A stretch of 64,000 bases of DNA from IMG/VR virus record IMGVR_UViG_3300042890_005556; one strand, written 5' to 3'. Under the pieces are notes generated by a model. The model searched no databases and had not been told where the DNA came from. It was given only the letters and a program-made list of their open reading frames with translations. Shown here one piece after another: positions 58,777 to 64,000 of the stretch. The position numbers were made by a program, and so were the translations under genes. Origin of the DNA: a virus. The first letter of the stretch is position 1. Each line of letters starts with the position of its first letter.

Positions 58777-60066
58777 TCAGGGAGTGAGACCGTGTGATAG
58801 GCAGACTAGTTTTATTTGGTCTCTAAAGTCATTTACTGATCTTATGGTGATTCCAAAGAATTCGGCCATGTGGTTGATTTTTGGGTCACCAGCTCCAAAT
58901 CTGTCGCTGAATGATTCATATACTTCACCGTTTTGGATCAGTATATCGTAAACTTGTTGACAAAGTCCCTTTGGCAGGGATTTCCGTATGGTAGACAAAG
59001 CATCTTCGGCTTCTATTACTGAAACGTGATCTTCCAAGATCATTTTCTGGCCCTCAACAAAGCGGTGGCCTATCTGGTCTAGAGTAGAACCACCTTCGTC
59101 CTCGGTGACACTTAGTTGATTGTCCAGAACAGTTACGTGTTCTGGGCGAATCACTACTGCTTCAAGCTCATCCTGACAAGAAGACTCATCCGTGATTTGG
59201 ATAGATATCGTATTGTTATCGATACCTAATAATACGCCATGTCTTATTGCTTTTTCTTTGATTTTAGAAAATTCAATAGAGAATTCTGGTGGCGTTTGCA
59301 TTCCTAAAATATGGAACGCATAGTGACTATCTTCCTTGGCACAATTGTAATCAATGTTCATCTGGGAGCATGTACTTGCTAGCTCTTCGGAGATGATGTA
59401 GTCTGGGCGACCGCTGATCAATTGTGGTACCTTTTTATGTTCTTGGCGTTTGTTTTCTTTTAAGTGTTGTCTGAAGTAATTCCAGGCGAATTCACCAAAG
59501 AATTTCTTGAGCTGCTTTGGGTCGTTGACGATTGCTTCTGGGTTCTCATATTTTCTCTCGCCAGGGATTGGCTGTATTGGCGATATGATTTTTGATCCTG
59601 AGTACCCTTCTGCTAGAAGCAAGCGGTAGTCGTCGTAGTCAATGAATGTTTTTTCGGTGGTGAGGTTGCCTTTTTCGGCTATTTTGACTTTATTACAGCT
59701 AGGGCAACATATGAGTTGCTGGTCTATGCTCTTGGCTTTACCTCTTTTTGTCAGATATTGTGTCTGCTGGCAACTTTCGCATTTAAATGTGTAGTCGCGG
59801 TGGTAAAAGAGGTTTATCACTCCGCGCCATATTGCTATCTGATATTCTAGCTCGGCTGCTGTAGAGTCGTCGGCGTAGTCTCCGCCAATTGTCACCCTGA
59901 ATTGTTTCATTATCTCTGCTCTATGTCTTACCATTTCTTTATGATTTGACACATATGTCACCATGTCATGCACTTTTTGTCGTTCGTCTTCTGAGATTTG
60001 CGACATGGTGATGTTTACCAATGAGCCTCTGAGATATAGCTTTGGCATTTGACGAACAATCGGCAT
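58777..60066 (-). CDS. Sigma70-like/HTH transcription factor with zinc-ribbon insertion
   Basis: Region-2-like EYQIAIWRG..FAWNYFRQ; CESC..CCPSC; C-terminal HTH INHMAEFFGITIRSV; GGAGG RBS. Confidence 0.5.
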   Translation of the reverse strand: MPIVRQMPKLYLRGSLVNITMSQISEDERQKVHDMVTYVSNHKEMVRHRAEIMKQFRVTIGGDYADDSTAAELEYQIAIWRGVINLFYHRDYTFKCESCQQTQYLTKRGKAKSIDQQLICCPSCNKVKIAEKGNLTTEKTFIDYDDYRLLLAEGYSGSKIISPIQPIPGERKYENPEAIVNDPKQLKKFFGEFAWNYFRQHLKENKRQEHKKVPQLISGRPDYIISEELASTCSQMNIDYNCAKEDSHYAFHILGMQTPPEFSIEFSKIKEKAIRHGVLLGIDNNTISIQITDESSCQDELEAVVIRPEHVTVLDNQLSVTEDEGGSTLDQIGHRFVEGQKMILEDHVSVIEAEDALSTIRKSLPKGLCQQVYDILIQNGEVYESFSDRFGAGDPKINHMAEFFGITIRSVNDFRDQIKLVCLSHGLTP

Positions 60067-60141
60067 TTGTTACCTCCATGGTTGTGTGATTACCACTGCC
60101 GTATTTTAGAACAGACAATCCTTTTTGGCAGGAGATCCGCC

Positions 60142-60903
60142 ATGGCTCAGTATTGCGACACGAAGAAACTCGAAAAGGTCTGGTTTAACTGGCTTCTATC
60201 CAAATCAGCACCCACGCTGGAGCCATACAGGAAAGCGGGTGTGTTGTGGACTAAAGCCATAGGTCTCGTCGATGTGAAGGGTGAGGTGATTGTCAAAGGT
60301 GGTAAGACCTTTAAAAGTCCTACACATCCTATCAGATCGCACTGTATCTTGTCAAGATATCCGTTCTTCTTTACCACTTTTAATGGTAAGCCACAAGAAC
60401 TTGCGTCCCAAATACATTATAACGAAGATGGTGATTATACGACAACCCCCATTGCACTTTCAGAGATAGAAATAGTAAAAACCAAGCCGGAAATAAAAGA
60501 CATAGAACAAATACTACTAAAAGATGGCTACATCCTAGATGCAGAAACAGGAAAAAGCTGGGAGTCCATGTTAATAGACATCAATAAAATGTGCCTCGGA
60601 ATAGCATCTAAATTCCATCAAAAAACAGCAGAAGAATTGAATGATTTAGCTAACGAAGCATTATTGCAAGTAGCTAACAAATTATCTACGGATAGGCTGG
60701 TATATACTCCCGGAAGGGCACCAGTATTCAATTTATTAACCACCACTATACATCGATGCATGTTTTCAATTATGAATAAAAGGAAAAATCAAAGAGAAGG
60801 GCTTAACAGATTACTGCAGGACGCACAATCTGGGTCATTACCTCAAACTAACAGAAGCCTGAGACTCCAAACATTCACGACGAGAAAACATGAAAATCGT
60901 TAG
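60142..60903 (+). CDS. Late sigma factor, T4 gp55-like
   Basis: MAQYCDTKKL...MCLGIASKF...DLANEALL...PVFNLLTTTIHRCMFSIMNKRK; GGAG RBS. Confidence 0.55.
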   Translation: MAQYCDTKKLEKVWFNWLLSKSAPTLEPYRKAGVLWTKAIGLVDVKGEVIVKGGKTFKSPTHPIRSHCILSRYPFFFTTFNGKPQELASQIHYNEDGDYTTTPIALSEIEIVKTKPEIKDIEQILLKDGYILDAETGKSWESMLIDINKMCLGIASKFHQKTAEELNDLANEALLQVANKLSTDRLVYTPGRAPVFNLLTTTIHRCMFSIMNKRKNQREGLNRLLQDAQSGSLPQTNRSLRLQTFTTRKHENR

Positions 60904-61831
60904 TAACAAACACATTGTGCCAGCAGTAACAAAAAAACCAATAGACAATATTAAAATAGTTGTTAGTCCCCATAATAAAACTATAAGCACACTAAATGCT
61001 TATAATCAATCAGCCCATATGAAAGTAATCCCAGCACAAATAGCACCGCAGATCAAAAACAAAGCAGTCATTGATAAAAGCCTAGTAAAAAGAACTCAAA
61101 ACCCAAATAAACCAAAACCACCAGCATCGGTAACTTACGCTTCCGGCGAAGCACCAATCGAAAGCATACCAAAAATATACGGTATAAAAGACATAGGTAA
61201 AGGTAAGACATTAGTAGTCATAGCAAACGGCCCAAGTATAAACGAAGTTGAATTGGAGAGGCTAAAAGACAAGCCAGGCATCGACACTCTATCAATAAAC
61301 AGACCGGACCCACGGGTCTGGCCAACCACATATTGGTCATTTTACGACCAATCACAGCTTGTGCGACACGAAGACCTGTATAATTATTATGAAGGCATAA
61401 CCTTTCTAAGCACAGCCATCAAGAGAGACAAGGCCAGAAGCATAAAGTTTAAAAATTTTGGCAAAAAGCAATTTAGCAGAGACTTAACAAAGGGATTATG
61501 TATAGGACGCACAAGCTGCTATGCTGCTATGCAACTTGCTTTATGGATGGATTACGATAAGATATTCTTTTTTGGGGTTGATATGCACCCAGATGGTATT
61601 GACGGCAAGCTCCATTTCTACGGGACAAATCCCGACGTAGACCCTGATATTAGGAAAAAACGATTTAACTCAGAAGCAGAATACTTCGAATTTGCCGCAG
61701 ATAACATGGAATACCAAGAGAGAAAGAGATTTCACTTTTGTTCGTCTTACCTGACATGGCCCTTTAAATCGCGTTTCAATTACTTAGATCACAAGACTGC
61801 TATAGACGTGATTTTAGGGTCAATGCTATGA
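60890..61831 (+). CDS. DUF115/MptE-like (sialyltransferase-like) protein
   Basis: VIANGPS..INR..TSCYAAMQLALWMDY..FFGVD..HFY. Confidence 0.7.
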   Translation: MKIVSNKHIVPAVTKKPIDNIKIVVSPHNKTISTLNAYNQSAHMKVIPAQIAPQIKNKAVIDKSLVKRTQNPNKPKPPASVTYASGEAPIESIPKIYGIKDIGKGKTLVVIANGPSINEVELERLKDKPGIDTLSINRPDPRVWPTTYWSFYDQSQLVRHEDLYNYYEGITFLSTAIKRDKARSIKFKNFGKKQFSRDLTKGLCIGRTSCYAAMQLALWMDYDKIFFFGVDMHPDGIDGKLHFYGTNPDVDPDIRKKRFNSEAEYFEFAADNMEYQERKRFHFCSSYLTWPFKSRFNYLDHKTAIDVILGSML

Positions 61832-61840
61832 TTCAACCTA

Positions 61841-62227
61841 ATGTATTATAAAACCATGAGATACTACATAGCATCTAGTTTAGACAATGTTGCCAATGTT
61901 CGTAACGCCATTATGAGGCTGACCGAAGCTGGGTTTAGTGTCACACATGATTGGACAAGACATGGCAGAATCACAGACCCATCACAGTATCAAGCCATTG
62001 GCGAAGCAGAGTACCAAGGCGTGATTGATGCAGATTTCATCGTGTTTTTTATGCCGACTAGGTATGGAAGCCATGTTGAATTCGGTATAGCACTAGCCTC
62101 TAACAAACCGATTTATATGGTCACAAACGGCGTGGAATTTGAAGAAAAAACATTCTATCATCTACCATCCGTACATAGATACAGCGATTTAAATGAACTA
62201 TTGCGCGAATGGGGAATAGACAAATGA
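61841..62227 (+). CDS. Nucleoside 2-deoxyribosyltransferase / deoxynucleotide N-hydrolase family protein
   Basis: YYIAS, GVIDADFIV, GSHVEFGIALASNKPI (catalytic Glu motif). Confidence 0.75.
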   Translation: MYYKTMRYYIASSLDNVANVRNAIMRLTEAGFSVTHDWTRHGRITDPSQYQAIGEAEYQGVIDADFIVFFMPTRYGSHVEFGIALASNKPIYMVTNGVEFEEKTFYHLPSVHRYSDLNELLREWGIDK

Positions 62228-62928
62228 GTGGAAGCGTATCAACTAAGCTCGAATTAGACGTAATGCAAGTCAATGAATTGCTTGAAGCAAGCGAGCTAAT
62301 GTCCCAACATACGCTACCAGCCATGGTCATACATTCTGGCTTGGCCCCAGACGCTTACGCAGCACGGATGAGAGTCAGAGGCAGGTACAAGATAATCATC
62401 CCTATTGATTGGCCAAAAGGCGAAAATTTTTCTAACTTGAAATTCAGGGGACTAAGCAAGCAAGCACTGGAAGCTGATGGGTTCGAGATAATGGTCACGC
62501 CAGGTAAGACCCTTCTAGATACAAAAAATGAGATCAACGTTCTGACTGAATTCATCAGAAACTTCCTGGGGGAATATGTGGAGGTTCGGTTTGTAATAGG
62601 CAATACTATTAAAACCGACGAGGAAATTGAAGTAATATGCAATGCCTTGTTAGGTATGAGAAACCCCACATTGTTGCGTAGCGATACTATCTTGAAAGTA
62701 CAGCAAAATGTCATCAGCGCAGAGTCGCATCTAGCCTTTGTTAATAAGCTACGCGGCTTTGGTCTTCCCACACCTATAAAGCTATCGGGGAACATGAACA
62801 ACCTGAAATCTATCGCTTCAGCGCCAGCAGTTTTCAGGTATGCTGTCAATGTAACACAAGCCAAGAATATTATTCGAGAGATCTTGCAGCAGCCCAGTGA
62901 ATTGAAGGAAATCCTGTCCGACGTTTGA
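62224..62928 (+). CDS. Deoxyribose-phosphate aldolase (DeoC)-like TIM barrel, divergent
   Basis: IPIDWPKG, ADGFEIMV, VRFVIG, LRSDT, PIKLSGN align by eye with DeoC VIGFPLG, ADEIDMV, LKVIIE, VKTST, VKASGG. Confidence 0.5.
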   Translation: MSGSVSTKLELDVMQVNELLEASELMSQHTLPAMVIHSGLAPDAYAARMRVRGRYKIIIPIDWPKGENFSNLKFRGLSKQALEADGFEIMVTPGKTLLDTKNEINVLTEFIRNFLGEYVEVRFVIGNTIKTDEEIEVICNALLGMRNPTLLRSDTILKVQQNVISAESHLAFVNKLRGFGLPTPIKLSGNMNNLKSIASAPAVFRYAVNVTQAKNIIREILQQPSELKEILSDV

Positions 62929-62938
62929 GAATGACAAT

Positions 62939-63328
62939 ATGATACACGATCATCTAATGGAAGCAATCAGGCAAGATGCCGACCTATTGACTAAATCCGA
63001 TGCGTGGCTCGAAGAAGAGAAGAATTACTTCACAGAGCAGATGCGCAAATCCATAGAAGAGCTAAAACCCATCCTCTTAGCTATAGCTATAAAACAAAAA
63101 TTGCAGCAGCAGAACATGGTGCCTAGGCAGAAGTTCATAAGAGGCAGCACAGGCCAGATAGAGAATGTTGTGATTGACTTCTGTAAGCTACCAGAAGCAC
63201 TGAGAGATATGCTCAATAACGGCAGAGATACCTTAGATCAGTTGATAGCAGCTGGCAATATTGCCACATGGCAGATAGACGGGTATGACGTTAATACCTG
63301 CCTCCAAACGGCACCGAAAGGGATATAA
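62939..63328 (+). CDS. Hypothetical protein
   Basis: 129 aa, TAATG overlap with the purZ-like gene. Confidence 0.6.
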   Translation: MIHDHLMEAIRQDADLLTKSDAWLEEEKNYFTEQMRKSIEELKPILLAIAIKQKLQQQNMVPRQKFIRGSTGQIENVVIDFCKLPEALRDMLNNGRDTLDQLIAAGNIATWQIDGYDVNTCLQTAPKGI

Positions 63329-64000
63329 TGCAAAACGGCAAGCTCAATATAGTCACAGACGGACAGCACGGTAGCACAGGCAAGGGTCTAATCAACGCAT
63401 ATCTAGCCGATAAACACCGACCAGAAATACTCAGCACGACCAATATGGCCAACGCTGGCCACACCGCAGTCAACGAAAACGGCGAACCGTTCATAGCAAA
63501 AGCATTACCGTCATCAGCGGTCCTAAACAAATGGCGAGAGGGCTATAAACCGACAGTATTCGTAGGAGCTTCATCTGCTTTTGATCTGCAACAGCTACTA
63601 AAAGAATGGGAAGAATGCGACAAGCCATTCACACTAATCCATCAAAGAGCGGGTGTCATTACACAAGAGCAAAAAGAAAGAGAATCCGGAGCATCAGGCA
63701 CAAAGCACGTTGCTAGCACCATGCAAGGATGTGGAGCATTTCTAGCAGATAAAGTCATGCGAAGAACAGATTTAAAACTCGCTAGAGATTATGAAGAGCT
63801 TCAACAATTCATGGCCATCAAAGAAGCACATACATGGCTAAAGGCACAGCTCGAAAGCTACGGTACAATTCTCCATGAAGGAAGCCAAGGATTCAGCTTG
63901 GATATAAGCCACGGTAGTCACTATCCAGAGTGTACAAGCCGCAGCACCACTGCTATTCAAAACCTTGCTGACCTTGGTCTTAACCACAAGCAAGTTGGTG
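63328..64000 (+). CDS. purZ: PurZ-type adenylosuccinate synthetase homolog (N6-succino-2-amino-dAMP synthase), truncated by the window end
   Basis: Manual translation: MQNGKLNIVTDGQHGSTGKGLINAYLA...NMANAGHT...ASTMQGCG...EGSQGFSLD...HYPECTSR; Ser in GSTGKG in place of the PurA Asp (GDEGKG). Confidence 0.75.
   Translation, partial: MQNGKLNIVTDGQHGSTGKGLINAYLADKHRPEILSTTNMANAGHTAVNENGEPFIAKALPSSAVLNKWREGYKPTVFVGASSAFDLQQLLKEWEECDKPFTLIHQRAGVITQEQKERESGASGTKHVASTMQGCGAFLADKVMRRTDLKLARDYEELQQFMAIKEAHTWLKAQLESYGTILHEGSQGFSLDISHGSHYPECTSRSTTAIQNLADLGLNHKQVG

Follow-up and report, generated by a model that had tools for sequence, protein, structure and literature searches.

An NDT-like and DERA-like gene pair conserved near purZ in giant phages, a possible deoxynucleotide-disposal unit for Z-DNA synthesis

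Genes at the end of the window

The window analysed here is a stretch of viral DNA of 64,000 nucleotides (IMG/VR record IMGVR_UViG_3300042890_005556), the end of which (60890-64000) is filled, according to the ORF calls, by a run of genes on the plus strand. A 313-aa DUF115/MptE-like and WaaZ-like putative glycosyltransferase (60890-61831, plus strand), named after Pfam and NCBIfam matches below the cut-offs, is followed after a gap of 9 nt by an enzyme of the NDT superfamily of 128 aa (61841-62227, plus strand), which its motifs, AF2 model and Foldseek matches predict to be a 2'-deoxynucleoside 5'-monophosphate N-glycosidase and possibly a transferase. The TGA of this gene overlaps the start of the next one as ATGA. 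This next gene (62224-62928, plus strand) encodes a TIM barrel of the DERA fold with a remodelled active site (234 aa from an internal ATG), as assigned by AF2, Foldseek and VIA-align. After a gap of 10 nt there is a gene for a protein of 129 aa without a recognisable family (62939-63328, plus strand), which overlaps purZ as TAATG. The product of purZ (63328-64000, plus strand) is of the 2-aminoadenylosuccinate synthetase type, as judged from its match to phrog_1211, and its N-terminal 224 residues are present, the frame being open at the window end. No terminator-like sites were found on the plus strand between 59800 and 64000. The gene order and the three junctions (ATGA, 10-nt gap, TAATG) listed in an earlier note, made from the sequence alone, match the ORF calls exactly.

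The 129-aa protein had no significant match in Pfam, PHROG or NCBIfam. Its homologues occur in 17 of 23 viral loci and in most metagenome loci, and in the closer relatives it is kept between the barrel gene and purZ. The 313-aa protein matched Pfam PF01973 (E 3.4e-5, below the cut-off) and the NCBIfam WaaZ Kdo transferase (E 2.8e-6, far below the cut-off) and had no match in PHROGs; a GT42/WaaZ-like 'ANGPS' motif is found at its N-terminus. Viral loci have a homologue of it upstream of the NDT-like gene in 22 of 23 and in 31 of 31 cases. It probably represents context outside the nucleotide module, its other candidate home being a glycosyltransferase island. Ahead of the gene are two sigma-like genes that diverge from each other (58777-60066, minus strand, and 60049-60903, plus strand).

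Elsewhere, the window encodes many glycosyltransferases, as well as Pol III alpha (PF07733, two ORFs), a fragment of a family-A polymerase, RecA, DnaB and a ligase. One ORF in the stretch 14851-34375 matches the Mom proteins (PF25680, E 6e-5), which have been linked to the modification of adenine. A blastn search with the region against phages gave no match, and an exact 40-mer from the window was not present in the viral or metagenome contigs searched. One contig that is 98-99% identical to the window (L080) was found by protein search. Beyond the point where the window ends, it carries nothing but the remainder of purZ, a xylose-isomerase-like barrel, a giant ORF and two small ones.

The NDT-like protein

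The NDT-type fold that had been proposed for the product of 61841-62227 is borne out by the AF2 model (pLDDT 92.5) and its Foldseek matches, the top ones being BcmB, CtNDT, MilB and DNPH1 (TM 0.63-0.78). The model predicts the flavodoxin-like alpha/beta fold of NDT, DNPH1 and MilB. By Pfam comparison the protein falls just under the threshold of PF05014 (E 6e-6, 26.8 bits against a cut-off of 28.8), its homologue at locus L001 lies above it (30.6 bits), and the characterised DmtZ of phage Ghobes reaches only 18.3 bits on the same comparison. Neither PHROGs nor a tblastn search of GenBank phages gave a match.

In an alignment of 19 homologues the residues Y9, N16, W38, G42, E57, G60, P72, G76, E80, G82, A84 and F105 are invariant, and among them Tyr9, Glu57 and Glu80, the last as nucleophile, are the predicted catalytic candidates. 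The surroundings of the putative nucleophile read P72-x-R-x-G-S-H-x-E80-x-G-x-A. The best matches of the family profile among PDB sequences were the CMP and hmCMP N-glycosidases BcmB (E 1.1e-7), BlsM (7e-6) and MilB (2e-5), with which the family has the motif P-x-x-x-G-T-H-x-E-x-G-x-A in common, E80 being aligned with the MilB nucleophile E103. The likeness to these enzymes and to DNPH1 (Rcl) thus extends to fold, motif and the best matches in both sequence and structure. Nevertheless, the family lacks the F-(R/K) cytosine-cage motif of the MilB/BcmB/BlsM group, and it is found in phage DNA metabolism, whereas that group belongs to antibiotic biosynthesis.

The substitution of Tyr for Phe17 is known to switch the substrate of MilB from CMP to dCMP, and Ser97 and Gly99 of MilB contact the phosphate (PMC4081090). 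The window family differs from MilB in having an invariant Tyr at the position of Phe17, so that 2'-deoxy rather than ribo substrates are predicted for it, and the positions of Ser97 and Gly99 are occupied by Arg74 and Gly76. Together with the relatedness to NMP glycosidases, these features suggest that the NDT-like protein may act as a deoxynucleoside-5'-monophosphate N-glycosidase, a prediction from sequence that does not extend to the base.

Some relatives of the NDT-like protein carry an N-terminal zinc-ribbon extension of approximately 60-90 aa with a double CxxC, and others have a separate zinc-ribbon ORF of approximately 110-150 aa between the barrel and the homologue of the 129-aa protein (both forms noted over L003:9355-10017, L018:8727-9353 and L019-L022).

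The DERA-like barrel

The AF2 model of the second protein of the pair (pLDDT 88) consists of eight beta/alpha units. The assignment as a DeoC-like barrel, made earlier from the sequence, holds, since structure comparison places DERA (DeoC; EC 4.1.2.4) clearly first: all of the first 47 Foldseek matches in the PDB were DERA or DERA-derived (E values down to 4e-11, TM 0.7-0.78), and in unfiltered VIA-align comparisons six DERAs scored Z 18.6-20.6 over 199-214 aligned residues, while other barrels reached 15.4 at most. DERA, at a Z of about 20, is thus the closest fold by a clear margin. No similarity to DERA was seen, however, at the level of HMMs and profiles: the barrel had no match in Pfam, PHROGs or NCBIfam, none of 22 family members had a Pfam match (PF01791 was not reached), the family profile gave only chance matches among PDB sequences, and hhalign against E. 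coli DeoC returned nothing. Residues were therefore equated with those of DERA from strand position and motif, and not by residue-level superposition.

On this mapping, the motifs DWPKG (beta-3), ADGFEI (beta-4), LLRSDT (beta-6), IKLSGN (beta-7) and RYAV (beta-8) of the barrel correspond to NFPHG, GADEVD, FIKTST, FKPAGG and RFGA of DERA, respectively. The replacement of the Schiff-base lysine by arginine, which had already been suspected, was recovered, Arg152 on beta-6 being at the position of E. coli K167 by strand and motif; Arg122 on beta-5 likewise replaces Lys137 of DERA. Two equivalents of DERA residues are kept, namely Lys186 on beta-7 (K201) and Glu88 on beta-4 (D102). Since the defining lysine is gone, the cleavage of deoxyribose-5-phosphate (dR5P) by the known mechanism is not expected.

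An HMM search of 1.84 billion representatives delineated a discrete family of 244 clusters, of which 214 had E values of 1e-10 or lower; the matches did not run on into true DERAs, and members were seen only in viral or metagenomic DNA. A pattern scan of the bacterial and archaeal genome contigs of 185,579 species genomes found no relatives of the barrel; tblastn against GenBank phages gave no match, BFVD offered only generic TIM barrels for the model (TM 0.58 or less) and the ESM Atlas had no usable match. Fusion forms were looked for and rejected, the longer members carrying merely low-complexity tails. Such Lys/Glu/Pro-rich C-terminal tails, 80-130 aa in length, occur on the homologues P0099, P0159, P0161, P0173, P0181 and P0196.

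Over 189 sequences, with identities reaching down to roughly 25%, some 15 polar positions show 90-100% conservation. Lys73 and an acidic residue (Glu or Asp) at position 88 are present in all 189 members, Arg152 in 182 (Lys in the other seven), Arg122 in 181, Lys186 in 180, Glu10 in 179 and Asp62 in 178. One small subclade (P0148, P0165, P0167, P0174, P0182, P0195; L064:7177-7854) differs at four positions together: 122 has C, I or S in place of R, 152 has K in place of R, 186 has I, V, T or A in place of K, and 154 has E in place of D. Here beta-6 again carries the lysine, as in DERA, so that members of the family have it on beta-7 or else on beta-6. Judging from the alignment, this co-variation is the behaviour of a live rather than a decayed active site, and the nucleophilic lysine may simply have moved. 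The earlier note had left it open whether the barrel is non-catalytic or performs different chemistry; the near-invariant polar core and the co-variation of positions 152 and 186 make the latter the likelier, and the former loses ground.

Conservation of the gene pair

Homologues of the barrel were gathered from IMG/VR and JGI metagenomes, giving 66 non-identical loci, 52 of which have at least 700 nt of upstream sequence. The NDT-like gene ends within 250 nt upstream of the barrel gene on the same strand in 44 of these 52 (43 scored by script plus L002, a scoring artefact in which the genes are adjacent by coordinates) and 366-636 nt upstream in five more, which makes 49 of 52 within about 650 nt. 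Three loci have no local NDT-like gene, although in one of these it is found elsewhere on the contig.

Distant genomes seemed a candidate for the loss of the NDT-like gene, which was ruled out: a second, deeply diverged NDT subfamily of 180-220 aa ('VYLAGPVE ... FTxGTxEE') occupies the same position and overlaps the start of the barrel gene. PF15891 is matched by 9 of 11 of its members and PF05014 by 6 of 11, and hhalign aligns it with the subfamily of the window at 81% probability. The pairing therefore persists down to about 25% identity of the barrel. In two complete genomes (G007 and G008) the pair stays together with purZ about 175 and 187 kb away. Of all the evidence that the NDT-like and barrel proteins work together, this conservation is the strongest.

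All loci with the pair come from one viral lineage, and the phages that carry the relatives are giant (230-410 kb). Of 37 records, 36 contain the barrel, among them all nine that are at least 90% complete, and the pair was not found in 50,697 GenBank phage records.

PurZ and its downstream neighbours

PurZ was identified by phrog_1211 (E 2.9e-39) and PF00709 (E 3e-18), and its full length, seen in the near-identical contig, is 366 aa. It has GSTGKG in place of the GDEGKG of PurA, that is, Ser for PurA Asp13. Its best relatives in GenBank (36-37% identity) are mostly from phages annotated as having PurZ, including phiVC8, ZP6 and S-2L, with vB_BpsS-140 at 36%; the proteins of the PurZ0 actinophages are more distant (28-30%).

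A PurA-like gene with Ser at the position of Asp13 was found in 10 of 10 whole records tested, and PurZ starts within 3 kb downstream of the barrel gene on the same strand in 40 of the 45 loci with enough flank. The co-occurrence with purZ that the earlier note proposed as a check is thus observed, and its view of the two genes as a unit linked to purZ agrees with their adjacency in nearly all 52 informative loci, but since every locus comes from one lineage, the co-occurrence may reflect ancestry and not function.

In the closer relatives a xylose-isomerase/AP-endonuclease-2-like TIM barrel lies directly 3' of purZ (L080:10202-10981; L005:12637-13419), and after it come conserved genes for proteins of some 70 and 140 aa; this TIM barrel is missing from the distant subclade. 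At L004:11726-15364 the PurZ homologue lies inside an open frame of 1212 aa, possibly an intein or a fusion. As regards a conceivable replacement of PurB by the DERA-like barrel, a PurB-like (Lyase_1) protein 490 aa in length is present in one distant relative (L076, G006:186227-190093), whereas four other complete relatives lack it.

Helper genes of Z-DNA synthesis

The Z-DNA phages known so far are small podoviruses and siphoviruses, helped by either DatZ/MazZ or DutZ/DmtZ. No HD, MazG or dUTPase domains were found among the 65 ORFs of at least 90 aa in the window, in agreement with the earlier reading that it has no recognisable datZ or mazZ, and neither gene was found just beyond the window, on the near-identical contig. 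Searches of five whole-record relatives from the subclade of the window, four of them 98-100% complete, extended this result to MazG, DUF550, DUF5664 and YfbR-like proteins, for which there was no match; the absences of DUF550 and DUF5664 are weak, since the controls for these two were positive in no genome. A generic HD domain is present in two of the five. Canonical helpers of the Z cluster were, on the whole, not detectable in the window, the near-identical contig or the complete relatives tested.

One or two genes of the dUTPase family are present in the giant-phage relatives. Among the relatives G001-G005 canonical and divergent paralogues can be told apart (L028-L031 versus L032-L035) by GIIDSDYRGE as against GIIDATYTGP; the divergent form has YTG for YRGE and an N-terminal zinc-ribbon extension with CxxC. 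By analogy, one may speculate that the divergent dUTPase is a DutZ-like dATP/dGTP pyrophosphatase, which could supply dAMP as DutZ does.

Comparison with DmtZ

The DmtZ enzyme of the PurZ0 actinophages hydrolyses dAMP to adenine or transfers dR5P to Z (NAR 2026, PMC12884076), PF05014 is associated with Z-modified contigs, and dA is the preferred donor of NDT-M2, an enzyme found on dZ contigs (Yang et al., bioRxiv 10.1101/2025.10.22.683976). The core of the earlier inference, a glycosidase acting on dAMP, is therefore already published (Poubanne et al.; Yang et al.) and no longer novel. Neither an aldolase-like partner nor giant phages are mentioned in the DmtZ paper or the preprint, save E. 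coli DeoC as an assay reagent, and a search for literature on PurZ with an aldolase or in jumbo phages found nothing relevant. New here are the partner of DERA descent, the closeness with which it is conserved beside the glycosidase, and the occurrence in giant phages that lack DatZ and MazZ.

The comparison with DmtZ was made with gp53 of Gordonia phage Ghobes and the N-terminal domain of gp53 of Arthrobacter phage Wayne. Like DmtZ, the NDT-like protein belongs to the NDT superfamily, is encoded close to purZ in phages without DatZ and has an N-terminal Tyr, a Glu nucleophile and a W-T-x-H-G motif. Its Asp15 (Tyr+6) resembles Asp12 of DmtZ, which contacts N6 of adenine (PMC12884076), although this column varies among the relatives (D/H/Q/F/N/Y/R/L/S/A). 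The differences are that the third residue of the triad is Glu and not Asn, that the gene is neither fused to nor next to a Dut-like gene, and that the barrel partner is absent from DmtZ phages, from which the present phages also differ in their size (230-410 kb) and in a PurZ nearer to the phiVC8/S-2L type. BLAST detected no likeness to DmtZ, and hhalign of the family against DmtZ gave a probability of 24% (E 8e-4, 60 columns). By these sequence comparisons the protein is not a detectable orthologue of DmtZ, and it looks like another independent recruitment from the NDT superfamily.

Possible function of the pair

The NDT-like and barrel proteins probably stand in for the usual adenine-purging helper genes. 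The role proposed for them is the one played by DatZ (HD/YfbR-like), MazZ (MazG, DUF550) and DUF5664, namely, to keep adenine out of the DNA precursor pool. We put forward, tentatively and with a little less than even confidence, that the pair encodes a deoxynucleotide-disposal unit of two translationally coupled enzymes, and that this unit serves the synthesis of Z-DNA in a giant-phage clade without DatZ and MazZ. In such a unit the substrate of the NDT-like protein would be a 2'-deoxynucleoside 5'-monophosphate, dAMP being the most plausible one; Glu80 would attack its C1' and release the base, as the family, the motifs and the published analogue suggest. Deoxyribose-5-phosphate might then be freed by hydrolysis or, as with DmtZ and Z, be transferred to a different base. 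The barrel, to go by its ancestry and conserved adjacency, might bind and transform this product or a closely related phosphosugar; without the classical Schiff-base lysine on beta-6, it would use Lys186 on beta-7 or a non-Schiff-base chemistry around Arg122, Arg152, Lys73 and Glu88. PurZ, encoded two genes downstream of the barrel, would then make the Z precursor from dGMP. The reading is limited by the marginal similarity to DmtZ, the non-conserved Asp15 and the single lineage, and Z in the phage DNA is itself presumed from the genes.

A bolder form of the proposal, which we regard as doubtful, is that the barrel represents a new enzyme family with a moved or replaced catalytic lysine, functionally locked to a dNMP N-glycosidase, and that the pair makes up an undescribed route, independent of DatZ and MazZ, for excluding adenine from the Z-DNA of giant phages. 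The barrel could alternatively perform a missing step of Z metabolism, either a non-aldolase processing of deoxyribose-5-phosphate or an action on the product of PurZ.

Several other explanations were weighed against the disposal unit. The pair might serve general nucleotide recycling, by handling dNMPs from host DNA or by sanitising a nucleotide with a base other than adenine (dUMP, for example, or a modified pyrimidine dNMP), with purZ nearby owing to the clustering of nucleotide genes in this lineage. Pyrimidine nucleotides are indeed substrates of DNPH1, MilB and BcmB, and the variable base-specificity position, the distance of the pair from purZ in the two complete genomes mentioned above and the origin of every locus from one lineage all fit this explanation. 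We nevertheless hold it unlikely, as every contig found to have the pair has PurZ-type genes too, and as the pair is missing from the GenBank phage records, and the barrel from the species genomes, as far as the pattern used can tell. It is quite unlikely that the barrel is a pseudo-enzyme, that is, a subunit of the NDT-like enzyme that has no catalytic role and serves binding or regulation by holding deoxyribose-5-phosphate or the nucleotide. The arginines in place of both the Schiff-base lysine and K137 would be expected of such a subunit, a Toxoplasma DERA-like protein, apparently inactive, is among the structural matches, and the ATGA coupling suggests stoichiometric co-production. The 90-100% conservation of about 15 polar positions speaks against it, as does the joint shift of positions 122, 152 and 186 in one subclade (from R/R/K to C/K/I), which is typical of a working active site.

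The remaining explanations concern the NDT-like protein itself. As a purine 2'-deoxyribosyltransferase acting on nucleosides and not nucleotides, it would swap adenine and Z among deoxynucleosides in the manner of NDT-M2. The good structural matches to CtNDT and other true NDTs and the use of dA as favoured donor by NDT-M2 from dZ contigs (bioRxiv 10.1101/2025.10.22.683976) are in line with this, but the best sequence matches are NMP glycosidases with the P..GTHxE motif, the 5'-OH/phosphate position is taken by Arg or Gly and not Asp, and a phosphorylated sugar product fits the DERA-derived neighbour better, all of which leaves it decidedly unlikely. It would be very improbable for the pair to be a counter-defence device, in which signalling nucleotides, whether derived from NAD or not, are cleaved by a fold of the NDT/TIR/SLOG kind and the resulting sugar-phosphate is processed by the barrel. 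TIR and SARM1 domains do appear lower in the Foldseek list of the NDT-like protein, together with one weak SLOG match in Pfam, yet the Tyr/Glu/Glu triad and the GTHxE motif are features of NDT-family glycosidases, and no defence-related neighbours were seen.

Significance

Both proteins of the pair are small and lend themselves to direct testing in vitro. The barrel offers a clean natural example of a DERA scaffold in which the Schiff-base lysine is replaced and a co-varying lysine lies one strand over, a replacement of interest for the mechanism and engineering of aldolases. A whole clade of phages of 230-410 kb has PurZ with neither set of helpers and a conserved glycosidase-plus-barrel pair instead. 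Should this pair purge dAMP, it would add a third way, assembled independently, of solving the same problem, and would extend the picture of functional convergence drawn in the 2026 DmtZ paper.
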